A DNA stretch of 64,000 nt, taken from contig JAHLVW010000047.1 of assembly GCA_019058275.1 (NCBI GenBank), positions 31,996-95,995 on the forward strand, in the 5' to 3' direction. Under the pieces are notes generated by a model. That model ran no database searches, had not been told where the DNA came from, and was given only the letters and a program-made list of their open reading frames with translations. The translations under genes were made by a program, and so were the position numbers. Origin of the DNA: Candidatus Heimdallarchaeota archaeon (GTDB lineage Archaea; Asgardarchaeota; Heimdallarchaeia; JABLTI01). Every line of letters begins with the position of its first letter. Position 1 is the stretch's first letter. This document shows positions 20,192-25,063 of the stretch, in pieces.

Positions 20192-21280
20192 TCATTCACT
20201 TAATTTTACCAACAAACTCTCTATACTTTTTTGTTTTTCAGTATCTTTTAGTGTTGAAAAGTAGATATTCAAATCACGTAAGAATATTCTAGCTTGGAGA
20301 TTATAGTTTAATAGAGACATAATTTTTGCATGGTCGATGAGATTTGTGTTTAGATCATACTCAAACTTTGAAGGATTTTCCTTAGATAAGTATGCATTTA
20401 ATTCAGTACCAAAGAATTTCAAAGGTATTTTGCCCGGTGTAATTAATCGTTTGACATTCTCATCATAGATTGATCTTTGTAGTTTGATAAGAAGATCTTG
20501 TTTTAGTGCCTTGTTTAAATCTCCCTTAATATTATCCAATGATTTATCTTTAAGGTAAGGTGCAACATAAAAATTAATGTGCAAATCAATTGCAAGAAAT
20601 ACATTTCCCTCTTTTGTTTTTGATGATAATTGCTTTTCTTCACAAGGTATATTTATTTCAATAATTCTATCCAACGAGCTTTTAGTAGTAATTAATGCCC
20701 CTAATGTTTGAGATTTTTCTTTATTAAAAATGATTTTATCCCAAAGAACATCTATACCTTCAAACAATGATTTTTTAAGTTTAGTTTGTTTTTTCAAAAC
20801 TTCTTTATCAGTTTCAAACTCCATTGTATGAATAAAACTCAAAAGATTTTCAGGCATTAATTTTTCTGTCTTTGCTGTAATTTTGACCAGTTTTTCCTTG
20901 GAAATTTGATAATAATCTATCGTTTCTTTCTGTACATTCACTAGAAGTAAAACACTCTTCAAATCAGTAATCTTCTCTGCAAGTGATTTCAAAGTAAAAG
21001 TAGTAATTTCTGTTTCACAATAAAATACTAAACCAATGATTTCCAAATTGTATGGAACCATTATTTTTAGAGCTTTTAATTGGTTGATATCATCTTCATC
21101 CAACGTTATTGCAGTTATTTTGGTATCTTTTTGCTCTGGGAAATGAACTACAGAAATGGCATGTATTTCATTTTTCTTTATATCAATAGTTCCAAGTAAA
21201 GCAGAAAATTTAATTTTTTCAGATAATTGACAAATGTTTGAAAATTGGTTGACAATTTCATTATTGATTATAAGTGCCAT
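20192..21280 (-). CDS. ODR-4-like protein (non-catalytic MPN-like N-terminus)
   Basis: Collinear resemblance to eukaryotic ODR4: ALLG, LDEDD..LKIMVPYNLEIIGLV, GNVFL, ALKQDLL..LQR, TPGKIPL..GTELNAY; judged by eye only. Confidence 0.55.
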   Translation of the reverse strand: MALIINNEIVNQFSNICQLSEKIKFSALLGTIDIKKNEIHAISVVHFPEQKDTKITAITLDEDDINQLKALKIMVPYNLEIIGLVFYCETEITTFTLKSLAEKITDLKSVLLLVNVQKETIDYYQISKEKLVKITAKTEKLMPENLLSFIHTMEFETDKEVLKKQTKLKKSLFEGIDVLWDKIIFNKEKSQTLGALITTKSSLDRIIEINIPCEEKQLSSKTKEGNVFLAIDLHINFYVAPYLKDKSLDNIKGDLNKALKQDLLIKLQRSIYDENVKRLITPGKIPLKFFGTELNAYLSKENPSKFEYDLNTNLIDHAKIMSLLNYNLQARIFLRDLNIYFSTLKDTEKQKSIESLLVKLSE

Positions 21281-21445
21281 GTTTAATTACCTATGTGAGA
21301 AATACCTATTAGACTTTTTTAAAATTACTCTCAATAAGAAATAATACATCCTTTTTCCCTAAAAGTTTTATAAAATCTAAACATAACACTTTTTTATCCA
21401 AAAGAATAACAAAACGATATACTCCGGAAAAGAAGGTTGACTTAA

Positions 21446-22390
21446 ATGAAAAGAGTTCTCGTAATTGGCTCTGGTGGGCAAATTGGTAGTGAGCTTGTTC
21501 CATACCTCCGTAAGAAGTATGGTAAAGAAAACGTAATAGCAACTGGAAGAAGAACAAAACTTACAGATGTAGTACTCGAAGGTGGTCCTTGCATTTATCT
21601 TGATGCTCTAAATCAAGAATCTCTGAAGAAGGTCATCTATGAAAATCAAATAGAACATGTTTATCATATGGCTTCCATTCTATCAGCAACTGGGGAAAAG
21701 ATGCCTCAAACAGCATGGGATATCAACATGAATGGACTCATTAATGTTCTTGAAGTATCAAGAAGATATGGTGTAGAGAGAGTCATTTGGCCTAGCTCAA
21801 TAGCTGCTTTTGGACCAACAACTCCTCAGGAAAATGCTCCAAACGAAACGATTCTACAACCAACAACTATGTACGGTATCACAAAAGTTGCTGGTGAATT
21901 ATTAGCTGAATACTACTACAAGAAATATGGTTTACTTACTTTATCGATGAGATTGCCAGGAATTATCAGTAGCGAAACACAACCTGGTGGAGGAACAACT
22001 GATTACGCAGTAGAAATCTTTTATGAAGCAATTAAAAATAAAAAATACACTTGTTTCTTAAAAGAAGATACAAAGCTTCCTATGATGTATCAACCTGACT
22101 GCTTGAAATGTCATATTGATTTAGCTGAAAAAGATGAATCAAAATTCAAGAGACACGTATACAATGTTACAGGAATGTCCTTTACTGCAGGTGAATTAGC
22201 TGCAGAGATCAAGAAACATATCCCTGAATTTACAATCGGTTATAAACCAGATTTCAGACAGGAAATTGCAGATTCATGGCCAAAATCACTTGATGATTCA
22301 TTAGCAAGAAAAGAATGGGGATGGAATCCTAAATACGATCTTGCTGCAATGACCAAGGATATGTTGGACAAACTCAGTAAACGTTTGTAA
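21446..22390 (+). CDS. tdh: L-threonine 3-dehydrogenase (extended SDR type)
   Basis: GSGGQIG, LSATGE, PSSIAAFGP, MYGITK, PGGGTTDYA, RQEIADSWP; kbl nearby. Confidence 0.92.
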   Translation: MKRVLVIGSGGQIGSELVPYLRKKYGKENVIATGRRTKLTDVVLEGGPCIYLDALNQESLKKVIYENQIEHVYHMASILSATGEKMPQTAWDINMNGLINVLEVSRRYGVERVIWPSSIAAFGPTTPQENAPNETILQPTTMYGITKVAGELLAEYYYKKYGLLTLSMRLPGIISSETQPGGGTTDYAVEIFYEAIKNKKYTCFLKEDTKLPMMYQPDCLKCHIDLAEKDESKFKRHVYNVTGMSFTAGELAAEIKKHIPEFTIGYKPDFRQEIADSWPKSLDDSLARKEWGWNPKYDLAAMTKDMLDKLSKRL

Positions 22391-22421: not shown

Positions 22422-22457
22422 TCTAACTTTAATTTTTATTAAATTTGTGTGATTGCA

Positions 22458-23069
22458 ATGGATAAAAAGAAAATTGTTCGAGAAGGTTATAATAAAGCTG
22501 CTCAAGCGTATCTAGATAAAAGGCATAAAGATCTAGAAGAAATGAACTTCTTACCAGAATTTTCTTCATATATTCAAAAAGGCGGAAAAGTACTAGATGC
22601 TGGTTGTGGAGGAGGATTACCTTTCACAAAATATCTAAGCGAACGATTTGATGTCATTGGAATAGATATCTCTGAAAAGCAAATTGAACTTGCAAAGAAA
22701 AATGTTCCGAAAGCACAATTTATCAGAAAAGATATGACAAATCTTGATTTTCCAAATGCATTTTTTGATGGAATACTTGCTTATTATTCAATTATTCATG
22801 TTCCTCGAGAAGAACAATTTGATTTATTTGCTAATTTTTATAGAATGCTAAAAGCAAATGGTGTTGCTTTTTTCAGTTTGCATAGTACAGATGATCCAGA
22901 ATCAGTTTTTGATGATTTTTTTGATACCAAAATGTTTTGGAGTGGTTTTGATAAAGAAACAAATATTAAAATGTTGAAGGATATCGGCTTTAAGATCCTC
23001 TGGTCAAAATTAGTAAATGATAGTTTAGGTGATTACCAGCATCTTTTTGTATTAATTAGAAAATCTTGA
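22458..23069 (+). CDS. class I SAM-dependent methyltransferase
   Basis: VLDAGCGGG, GIDISEKQI, FDGILAYYSIIHVP. Confidence 0.9.
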   Translation: MDKKKIVREGYNKAAQAYLDKRHKDLEEMNFLPEFSSYIQKGGKVLDAGCGGGLPFTKYLSERFDVIGIDISEKQIELAKKNVPKAQFIRKDMTNLDFPNAFFDGILAYYSIIHVPREEQFDLFANFYRMLKANGVAFFSLHSTDDPESVFDDFFDTKMFWSGFDKETNIKMLKDIGFKILWSKLVNDSLGDYQHLFVLIRKS

Positions 23070-23242
23070 AAGGTATGCAATATTTTTATCGAAATATTTA
23101 ACTCGAGATTTTTTATCACTATCACTATTCTTTTTAGTGAGTGTGTAAATATGTAGTTATAGCGCTTATATTATAGTGTCTTTTATAGTCGGATTATTTA
23201 GAGCGTTAAAAACTAAAATAGCAAGAGTGAAGGGTGAGTAGA

Positions 23243-25063
23243 ATGGCAGAAAGTTTAGGTGCTGATTTCTTTCTTACATTTGTATTAATACTCTTCCAGT
23301 TAATCTCACTTGGTATTTTCATTACACTCTATATTAGAAAAAGACAAGCTACTTTTCAAGCTTTGATTTTTTCCATAATATTTTTTATAGCAAGTAATAC
23401 AATGACTCTAATATTTATTAATAGAGCACCAACAGACTATCCTTTGGTTCTCTTTCAAGGATTATTAGCTACTGCTGGCTTAATTCCAATTGTTATTTTT
23501 CTTGAAATATTTGAAAGTGGTACGTCATTTACACCTAGAAGCTCAGGATCCATTATTTTTATCATGGTTGTAGGGCTTATTAAGAGTGCAAATTTTGCTT
23601 TTAATCCAGATATTGGTAACTTCATTGGTTTTATGGCACCAATAATGTTTATCTTAGTCGGAGCATTTTATCTTAATACTATTAAGAAAATGAAGTATAG
23701 AATTCGTTTTGAGAATCAAAAGAAAAAGCTAAGAAAAATACGCACTGGCATATATCTTACATTTATTATTCCCAAATTTATTATTGGATCTATCTTTACT
23801 GTAACAGTTTTACCTGTTCTAATCAAATTCTTCGTTGAAAATCCTGAGTTTTTAGAAAATTACAACATTGAATTCCTACAAGAGGCTCAAGCAATCCATA
23901 TTTTTGATATGATACTAAATACATTACAAACTATTGGATTAGTTATTATGAGCTTGCCAATAATCTATAGTCGATCAGTATTCTTTATGCAATCTCGACA
24001 TGTCTCAAAGCTTATTGTAATTAGTAAAGATGGAACTCCAGTTTTTGAATTTCCATTTGAATTAGATGATGAATTATGTGATGAGGTTTTACTAGATGAA
24101 GCATATATGGCTATAAGCACAATCATGAATAAAGGGGGAATTTCATGTGAGCAATTAAAAACGATGAATTTTGGCAATCTCGAGATAATGACCGAAATCA
24201 GAGATGAATTTGCTGCATTGCTCTTAGTAGATCGCCCCACAAAATTCTTGAAAGATTCCTTAGACTTTTTTGCTAATGATTTCCAACAAATATATCCAAA
24301 AAATGTAAGATTAGGTGAACTAAGAACTCAAAAACTCAAATATACTGCAGAGAAAATAATTCAGAAAAGCTTTGACCTTGAGCAAGAGGAATTTGAGCAA
24401 ATTAGAATTATAGTTAGTGAAGGCTATGATCGAGTTGCAGATGAATATCTTAAAACAAGATCTGAAAAGGATGAAGAAGTAAAATTATTGCCTGATTTCA
24501 TGAAAAGGTTGCCAGTAGGAGCAAGAGTTTTAGATGCAGGATGTGGTGCAGGAGAACCCATAACAAGAATTCTCAGTGAAAAATTCAAAGTTACTGGTGT
24601 AGACATCTCAAAAAAGCAAATAGAGAAAGCAAGAGAAACATTACCATTCTGTGAATTTATCTGGCAAGATATGACAACATTAACATTTCCAGATGAATAC
24701 TTTGATGGAATTATATCTTACTATGCTATACCTCATATACCAAGGGAAGAGCATAAAGAGTTACTAGAGAATTTCTTTAGAATGTTGAAGAACAATGGTA
24801 TTGCACTTCTCTGTTTTGGTACTAGTGATGATCCTGGCACTGTAGTAGATGATTTCTTCGGAGTAAAGATGTACTGGAGTAGTTTTGATGTGGGTACCAA
24901 TTTAGAAATGCTCAAAGAAGTAGGCTACCATGTTCTTTGGTTGAGGTTAATCTTCGATGATGTAACAGAAGAACAACACATCTTTGTATTAGCACAAAAA
25001 TTAGATAGAGAATTTCTAGAAGAAATAAAAGAAAATGGTGAGGAAGAAACTCCTCAAGATTAA
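23243..25063 (+). CDS. fusion of 7TM membrane domain, longin-like domain and class I SAM methyltransferase
   Basis: Seven hydrophobic segments; KLIVISKDGTPVF...DEVLL...ISTIM...LKTMNFGNLEI longin-like pattern; C-terminal VLDAGCGAG domain paralogous to the upstream gene; GGGTGA SD before ATG 23243. Confidence 0.75.
   Translation: MAESLGADFFLTFVLILFQLISLGIFITLYIRKRQATFQALIFSIIFFIASNTMTLIFINRAPTDYPLVLFQGLLATAGLIPIVIFLEIFESGTSFTPRSSGSIIFIMVVGLIKSANFAFNPDIGNFIGFMAPIMFILVGAFYLNTIKKMKYRIRFENQKKKLRKIRTGIYLTFIIPKFIIGSIFTVTVLPVLIKFFVENPEFLENYNIEFLQEAQAIHIFDMILNTLQTIGLVIMSLPIIYSRSVFFMQSRHVSKLIVISKDGTPVFEFPFELDDELCDEVLLDEAYMAISTIMNKGGISCEQLKTMNFGNLEIMTEIRDEFAALLLVDRPTKFLKDSLDFFANDFQQIYPKNVRLGELRTQKLKYTAEKIIQKSFDLEQEEFEQIRIIVSEGYDRVADEYLKTRSEKDEEVKLLPDFMKRLPVGARVLDAGCGAGEPITRILSEKFKVTGVDISKKQIEKARETLPFCEFIWQDMTTLTFPDEYFDGIISYYAIPHIPREEHKELLENFFRMLKNNGIALLCFGTSDDPGTVVDDFFGVKMYWSSFDVGTNLEMLKEVGYHVLWLRLIFDDVTEEQHIFVLAQKLDREFLEEIKENGEEETPQD

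Follow-up and report, generated by a model that had tools for sequence, protein, structure and literature searches.

ODR4 (C1orf27; Pfam ODR4-like, PF14778) is a partner of UFSP2 that is anchored in the endoplasmic reticulum, and the origin of UFMylation has been described as mosaic. On the basis of an AlphaFold prediction, Millrine et al. (2022, PMC9638016) assigned an MPN fold to ODR4, which they describe as stabilising and anchoring UFSP2. UFL1 and DDRGK1 have been reported in Asgard archaea, with UFSP2, UFC1 and UFM1 treated as eukaryote-only (Picchianti et al. 2023, PMC10183829), and Ufm1 homologues have been reported in nine Asgard clades (Koestlbacher et al. 2026, PMC12962969). A literature search found no paper linking ODR4 with Asgard archaea and none describing an active JAMM protease of an Asgard UFM1-type operon, and found UFC1 combined with Asgard only in Picchianti et al. 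(PMC10183829). The present analysis concerns a gene in a stretch of 64,000 nucleotides (the window; contig JAHLVW010000047.1, positions 31,996 to 95,995 of the forward strand) from Candidatus Heimdallarchaeota archaeon (assembly GCA_019058275.1). Its product, P0001, is on balance a dead, operon-less offshoot of an archaeal UFM1-type JAMM protease that resembles ODR4 and the N-terminal half of UFSP2 in form and likely serves as a non-catalytic scaffold.

An earlier, sequence-only reading of the window had placed an open reading frame of 362 amino acids (aa) on the minus strand at 20192-21280, where it is indeed present, and had proposed it as an archaeal homologue of eukaryotic ODR-4. The gene and the parts of its product are positioned in the window as follows.

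20192..21280, minus strand: whole gene for P0001, a 362-aa soluble pseudo-JAMM protein (open reading frame listing with translation, homologues and model)
20192-20194, minus strand: stop codon of the P0001 gene
20861..21280, minus strand: residues 1-140, MPN (JAB) fold with all JAMM catalytic positions lost
20369..20860, minus strand: residues 141-304, second alpha/beta domain of the UfSP2 N-terminal-domain type, the best conserved part
20195..20368, minus strand: residues 305-362, C-terminal three-helix bundle without a transmembrane anchor (secondary structure of the model)

The AlphaFold2 model of P0001, generated from an alignment of 29 sequences, had a predicted local distance difference test score (pLDDT) of 90.1 and a predicted template modelling score (pTM) of 0.89. 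It was composed of an MPN domain (residues 1-140), a second alpha/beta domain (domain 2; residues 141-304) and a three-helix tail (residues 305-362), the C-terminus forming an amphipathic bundle. The absence of a C-terminal transmembrane anchor, which had been read from the sequence, was confirmed by a maximum 19-residue Kyte-Doolittle hydropathy of 1.41. In the AlphaFold and Foldseek comparison that the sequence-only reading had proposed, the whole model was best matched by ODR-4 and UFSP2, over about 308 residues, which exceeds a generic MPN fold confined to the N-terminal ~120, and domain 2 was matched by the UfSP2 N-domain only. In the ESM Atlas the best match was an ODR-4 cluster (TM-score 0.66 over 308 residues, root-mean-square deviation 4.3), followed by a UFSP2 cluster carrying UfSP2_N (0.63 over 306 residues) and, third, by a generic archaeal Prok-JAB protein (0.44). 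The top PDB matches in Foldseek were those to Caenorhabditis elegans UfSP (ODR-8; 5xda and 5ejj; E 1e-9 to 7e-8 over ~345 columns), with Rpn11, BRCC36 and JAMM1 next (E around 1e-5). The order of an MPN followed by a UfSP2_N-type domain in P0001 was colinear with residues 13-351 of C. elegans UfSP, and domain 2 searched alone against PDB structures returned UfSP2 N-domains as the only matches. For the predicted model, these TM-scores (0.66 vs 0.63) do not allow P0001 to be placed with ODR4 rather than with the paralogous N-half of UFSP2. A language-model search returned ODR4-like clusters in 16 of 30 matches with a score of 0.90, which is weak evidence, the recognition value being below the tool's mark. 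Prediction of a homodimer from two copies with the family alignment (A1) scored 0.00, which counts neither for nor against.

At the level of sequence, the P0001 family was connected to an active protease. A profile built from A1 and run against 400 Asgard genomes found the family in 12/12 genomes of the window's own family, f1 (two genera), and outside f1 matched just the C-terminal third of one protein in one other Asgard family. This protein, P0163 (363 aa), has Prok-JAB and JAB matches in Pfam and an intact JAMM motif. The A1 hidden Markov model matched residues 247-355 of P0163 with an E-value of 3e-12, so that by sequence it is the tail that ties P0001 most strongly to the active JAMM proteins, and hhalign of the P0001 family against P0163 gave 95.5% over 314 columns. 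The genes next to that of P0163 encode a ThiF-family E1 and an E2 scoring above the Pfam cut-off for UFC1 (39.4 bits vs 25). Relatives of P0163 were found in 44 of the 400 genomes and in 24 of 85 genera. At 29 loci from at least seven Asgard families the operon order was a gene without known family, an E1, the JAMM protein, a small open reading frame and an E2. Within an alignment of 20 operon JAMM proteins (A4) the catalytic E, H, H, S and D were invariant. Proteins of this active family are about 335-410 aa long, similar to P0001, and the P0001 family aligned with A4 over 345 columns (hhalign 99.2%, E 2.9e-19), so that the homology is full-length.

Among PDB sequences the operon E1 was matched best by UBA5 (2e-51), with MoeB (8e-25) and UBA1 far behind. 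The E2 profile, searched against all PDB sequences, matched UFC1 only (26 sequences, E about 1e-5), and 2 of 3 E2 proteins tested passed the Pfam UFC1 cut-off. The small open reading frame encodes a ubiquitin-like protein (Ubl) of 87-94 aa that ends in RG(I/V)VG, sometimes with a tail of 1-4 residues and sometimes fused to the E2.

Several further features of these operons were observed. In several Asgard genomes (loci L028, L033, L038 and others, in frames of 259-307 aa) the UFC1-like E2 carries the Val-Gly Ubl as an in-frame N-terminal fusion, which would need proteolytic release. In one genome a UFC1-like domain lies within an 897-aa frame (G152:C100:36139-36678). Matches to the UFC1-like E2 at G260:C2:54879-55052, G276:C9:110236-110421 and G110:C451:1226-1753 contained in-frame stop codons or a C-terminal remnant only, and these broken copies suggest decay of the operon in some lineages. 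The first gene in most operon loci (u370; L028:4252-5361, minus strand, for example) is conserved, encodes about 370 aa and precedes the UBA5-like E1; no Pfam family and no PDB relative was found for its product, which is a candidate E3 or adaptor.

The sequence-only reading had noted that P0001 carries no JAMM metal ligands, and both the family alignment and hhalign mapping onto P0163 confirmed this. The catalytic Glu is replaced by Ile23, the two His by Phe86 and Cys88 and the Asp by Thr93, while the Ser falls in a short deletion of P0001; none of the five positions is conserved among the 29 members of the window's protein family. Unlike the genes of its active relatives, the P0001 gene is found in no operon with an E1, a Ubl or an E2. 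Indeed, a UFC1-like E2 was present in 36 of the 400 Asgard genomes and in 0 of the 12 f1 genomes, absences from genomes resting here and below on incomplete bins (64-93% completeness).

The pattern of conservation was also reversed between the dead and the active families. Mean pairwise identity in the dead family was 42% in the MPN domain, 56% in domain 2 and 54% in the tail, compared with 45%, 19% and 15%, respectively, in the active family. Polar residues invariant in the dead family were E154, E156, E208, D232, N236, D262, K266, Q268 and R269 in domain 2, where C213 and H234 were near-invariant, and the tail contained invariant H317 and R331. This polar set of domain 2 and the tail was not conserved in the active family. 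In the tree the dead clade was monophyletic, its stem measured about 2.6 substitutions per site, and it had no resolved point of attachment among the active families.

In the explanation that we favour, P0001 would belong to an Asgard family of JAMM proteases with two domains, as a soluble member that has lost its catalytic activity. This family would be an intact zinc isopeptidase in other Asgard lineages, encoded between a UBA5-like E1 and a Ubl with a UFC1-like E2 after it, and the E1-JAMM-Ubl-E2 arrangement would represent a UFM1-type tagging operon, whose active enzyme would presumably trim either the tag or its fusion with the E2 and also take the tag off targets. The architecture predicted to be shared begins with an MPN domain, continues with a UfSP2_N-type domain and ends in a helical tail. 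Because the same architecture is found in ODR4 and the N-half of UFSP2, these eukaryotic scaffolds most likely descend from the archaeal protease family, as fold and pathway context suggest. In the window's Heimdall family the operon would have been lost and the zinc site destroyed, with the gene yet kept in every genome and selection moved to domain 2 and the tail. Since constraint shifted to those parts, P0001 most likely functions through them as a non-catalytic binding or scaffold protein, which would make it an archaeal parallel to ODR4 as a pseudo-enzyme. It is quite likely that the P0001 module shares ancestry with the ODR4/UFSP2-N module, because the fold of domain 2 was otherwise seen in UfSP2 only and because the active family is linked by its operon to UBA5-type and UFC1-type enzymes. 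The new element is the dead, operon-less form of the active JAMM family.

The resemblance to ODR4 had been proposed from five strings of human ODR4 set beside motifs of P0001. All five strings are genuine and occur in real ODR4 in the order given. A 27-residue string was 100% identical to hominid ODR4 (P0045, 454 aa, PF14778), and the remaining four were found in order in the mammalian ODR4 alignment or consensus; no ODR4 chain was matched by the 27-residue string among PDB sequences. The resemblance of the motifs themselves did not exceed chance in BLASTP or hhalign. The best E-value of P0001 against human-type ODR4 in BLASTP was 2.2, and in the register chosen by hhalign only the first two motif pairs were aligned (SALLGT with SGLLIGQ and MVPYNLEIIGL with MLPGGLLVLGV). 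Searches with Pfam ODR4-like (PF14778; cut-off 24.5 bits), recommended with the sequence-only reading, returned no match at E up to 10 in P0001, in 29 family members or in a six-frame search of the genome. Pfam and NCBIfam gave noise only for P0001 and all 29 relatives, and the sole match of the P0001 profile among PDB sequences was a chance stretch of 37 residues.

A number of results weigh against the explanation favoured above. In hhalign the mammalian ODR4 profile (mammal-only, with an effective number of sequences, Neff, of 1.3) matched the 29-member P0001 family with a probability of 0.5% and P 0.11, domain 2 alone with P 0.24 in a different register, and the active JAMM family with P 0.007 in the MPN part only; these tests are weak because of the narrow sampling of the ODR4 profile. 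Outside the MPN part, neither archaeal family was tied to ODR4 or UfSP2_N by any sequence or profile method, and Pfam UfSP2_N (PF20908) had no match in P0001, its relatives or the six-frame search of the genome. The fold of domain 2 in the active family is one that we infer from its homology to the window's family. The proposal that the operon Ubl is a recognisable UFM1 was rejected, Pfam matches being sub-threshold in 3 of 18 members and PDB profile matches absent. Finally, no partner of P0001 was found, and its scaffold function is likewise one that we infer.

The sequence-only reading had also suggested that genes of the UFM1 pathway be sought in the same genome. No UFM1, UFC1, UFL1, DDRGK1 or Peptidase_C78 (PF07910) match rose above noise in this genome, which is 92.8% complete, so that absence is not proven, and tblastn with the operon proteins found just generic ThiF genes and weak tandem Ubl-like matches within a 659-aa open reading frame. 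That frame, which has no Pfam family, lies outside the window at C115:28193-30172 on the minus strand (L059:6194-8173) and adjoins a ThiF-family gene at C115:27091-27846. Its tandem UFM1-like Ubl matches had E-values of 0.005-0.1 in tblastn and 14-17 bits with Pfam Ufm1, and judged by these matches it may encode a multi-Ubl protein.

Other candidates from this genome were rejected. Weak UFC1-like and UFL1-like matches on contig C89 proved to be an ESCRT-I UEV protein and PheRS-alpha. An ESCRT-I/II cluster on this contig (L005:11043-13614) encodes a UEV-Vps23-like E2 fold, Vps28 and EAP30/Vps36, and that E2 fold explains the weak UFC1 match. On contig C9 a weak UFL1/DDRGK match was traced to a 278-aa PCI-domain protein (L004:1261-2094, minus strand; 24.4 bits), which reaches 18 bits, below threshold, with E3_UFM1_ligase. 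In eukaryotic complexes, MPN proteins usually have PCI proteins as their partners. An active JAMM protein of 334 aa on C105 had the MPN domain alone in common with P0001 and is no paralogue of the two-domain form.

The P0001 gene is real, conserved and phylogenetically narrow, as determined by homologue searches and by its distribution across the 400 genomes. A word-indexed search with P0001 identified 32 homologues at 39-57% identity and without frame breaks. Their sources were metagenomic Asgard or Heimdallarchaeota bins throughout; one of them, P0010, a 55% identical homologue on a 441-kb contig, is labelled by NCBI as 'Candidatus Bathyarchaeia archaeon', which is probably a binning or labelling issue. 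An exhaustive phmmer search over 1.8 billion cluster representatives returned 15 matches, all archaeal; neither that search nor a profile search at E up to 10 found a eukaryotic relative. Within its syntenic block the P0001 gene evolves fastest, with 36-55% identity compared with 69-89% for its neighbours, which lie in the window as follows.

21281..21445: 165-nucleotide divergent intergenic region between the P0001 gene and the epimerase-like gene (open reading frame layout)
21446-22390, plus strand: epimerase-like gene, diverging from the P0001 gene
18720-20180, plus strand: pyruvate kinase gene, convergent with the 3' end of the P0001 gene
23234-25063, plus strand: 7TM-longin-methyltransferase gene (7TM, seven-transmembrane)

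By this layout the P0001 gene is monocistronic, and the intergenic region presumably holds a putative promoter. The layout was the same around the homologue in seven other f1 genomes, and the pyruvate kinase and epimerase-like genes flank it at all f1 loci. At 22449-25063 (plus strand) a stand-alone methyltransferase gene is followed by the 7TM-longin-methyltransferase fusion, whose C-terminal domain is a paralogue of the stand-alone enzyme, and this pair is kept in all f1 genomes examined. A 7TM protein gene 2 kb from P0001 had been pointed out in the sequence-only reading and is present. It lies 2 kb from the homologue in every member of f1, but this adjacency carries no specific weight, since the whole 20-kb block is syntenic across these close relatives.

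The 7TM gene was one reason to consider P0001 a direct orthologue or soluble precursor of ODR-4, acting with the UFM1 pathway or in the maturation of 7TM proteins in this archaeon. Such a relationship would account for the best Atlas match and for the ODR4-like share of the language-model matches, for the order, as in ODR4, of an MPN domain that lacks ligands and then another alpha/beta domain, and would suit a lineage within the Heimdall class. However, UFSP2 was nearly equal in the Atlas and the PDB matches were to UfSP rather than ODR4, similarity to ODR4 was not detectable by sequence or profile, with no PF14778 match, and the C-terminal transmembrane anchor of ODR4 is replaced in P0001 by a soluble three-helix tail. 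Neither the UFSP2 (Peptidase_C78) partner nor UFM1, UFC1 or UFL1 was found above noise in the genome, the 7TM adjacency belongs to the syntenic block, and P0001 is archaeal, restricted to one Heimdall family. It derives from an active JAMM family, sits on a long branch and is catalytically dead, and hence is no plausible precursor. Direct orthology was therefore considered improbable. Of the earlier claims, the homology to ODR-4 is supported by the two-domain shape and by the UBA5-like/UFC1-like operons of relatives, but not by a profile link nor as an assignment to ODR4 over UFSP2; the 'soluble prokaryotic precursor' was correct as to solubility but not as to being a precursor. P0001 is a derived form, neither a specific ODR4 orthologue nor a precursor. 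The N-half of UFSP2 (C. elegans UfSP/ODR-8, 5xda and 5ejj; mouse UfSP2 N-domain, 3oqc) differs as well: identity to P0001 is 9-14%, P0001 has no PF20908 match, and it ends after the helical tail without a Peptidase_C78 catalytic domain (no PF07910 match). A further proposal, in which no archaeal lineage is closer to ODR4/UFSP2-N than the dead Heimdall one, which would then not be a side branch, would place loss of the zinc site and repurposing as a scaffold within Heimdallarchaeia before eukaryogenesis, with the C78 peptidase and the transmembrane anchor added later in eukaryotes; we give it little credence.

P0001 might instead be a generic MPN pseudo-enzyme with a lineage-specific inserted domain, its domain 2 resembling UfSP2_N by convergence on a simple alpha/beta arrangement and sharing no ancestry with ODR4 or UFSP2. 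Compared with JAMM/MPN+ metalloproteases (PF01398, PF14464), P0001 retains the MPN fold but not the E...HxHx7Sx2D motif. The MPN- pseudo-enzymes of eukaryotic complexes (Rpn8, CSN6, Abraxas/KIAA0157, eIF3f/h) have no UfSP2_N-type domain and function only in partnership with an active MPN+ subunit, of which none was identified for P0001. Convergence would not predict that the archaeal family is tied by its operon to UBA5-type and UFC1-type enzymes, the pathway of UFSP2 and ODR4, and the colinearity with C. elegans UfSP also argues against it, making this explanation unlikely, though less so than direct orthology. The dense invariant polar residues that domain 2 and the tail have and the active family lacks, together with the reversal of constraint between the two families, would also be consistent with a new catalytic or small-molecule site gained in domain 2 after the zinc site was lost, making P0001 a neo-enzyme or ligand sensor. 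No enzyme family was matched, though, and conserved polar patches are just as typical of protein-protein interfaces; a new active or ligand site is very doubtful.

The favoured explanation, that P0001 is a dead derivative of the UFM1-type JAMM protease, suggests an archaeal zinc protease of a UBA5/UFC1-type operon as the source of the non-catalytic body of the deUFMylase complex in eukaryotes (ODR4 and the N-half of UFSP2). An archaeal lineage would have arrived independently at the same outcome, an inactive MPN scaffold under selection. P0001 may thus serve as a small, soluble natural model of what a UfSP2_N-type domain binds and of how a protease turns into a scaffold, and at 362 aa, soluble and confidently modelled, it is suited to bench work.
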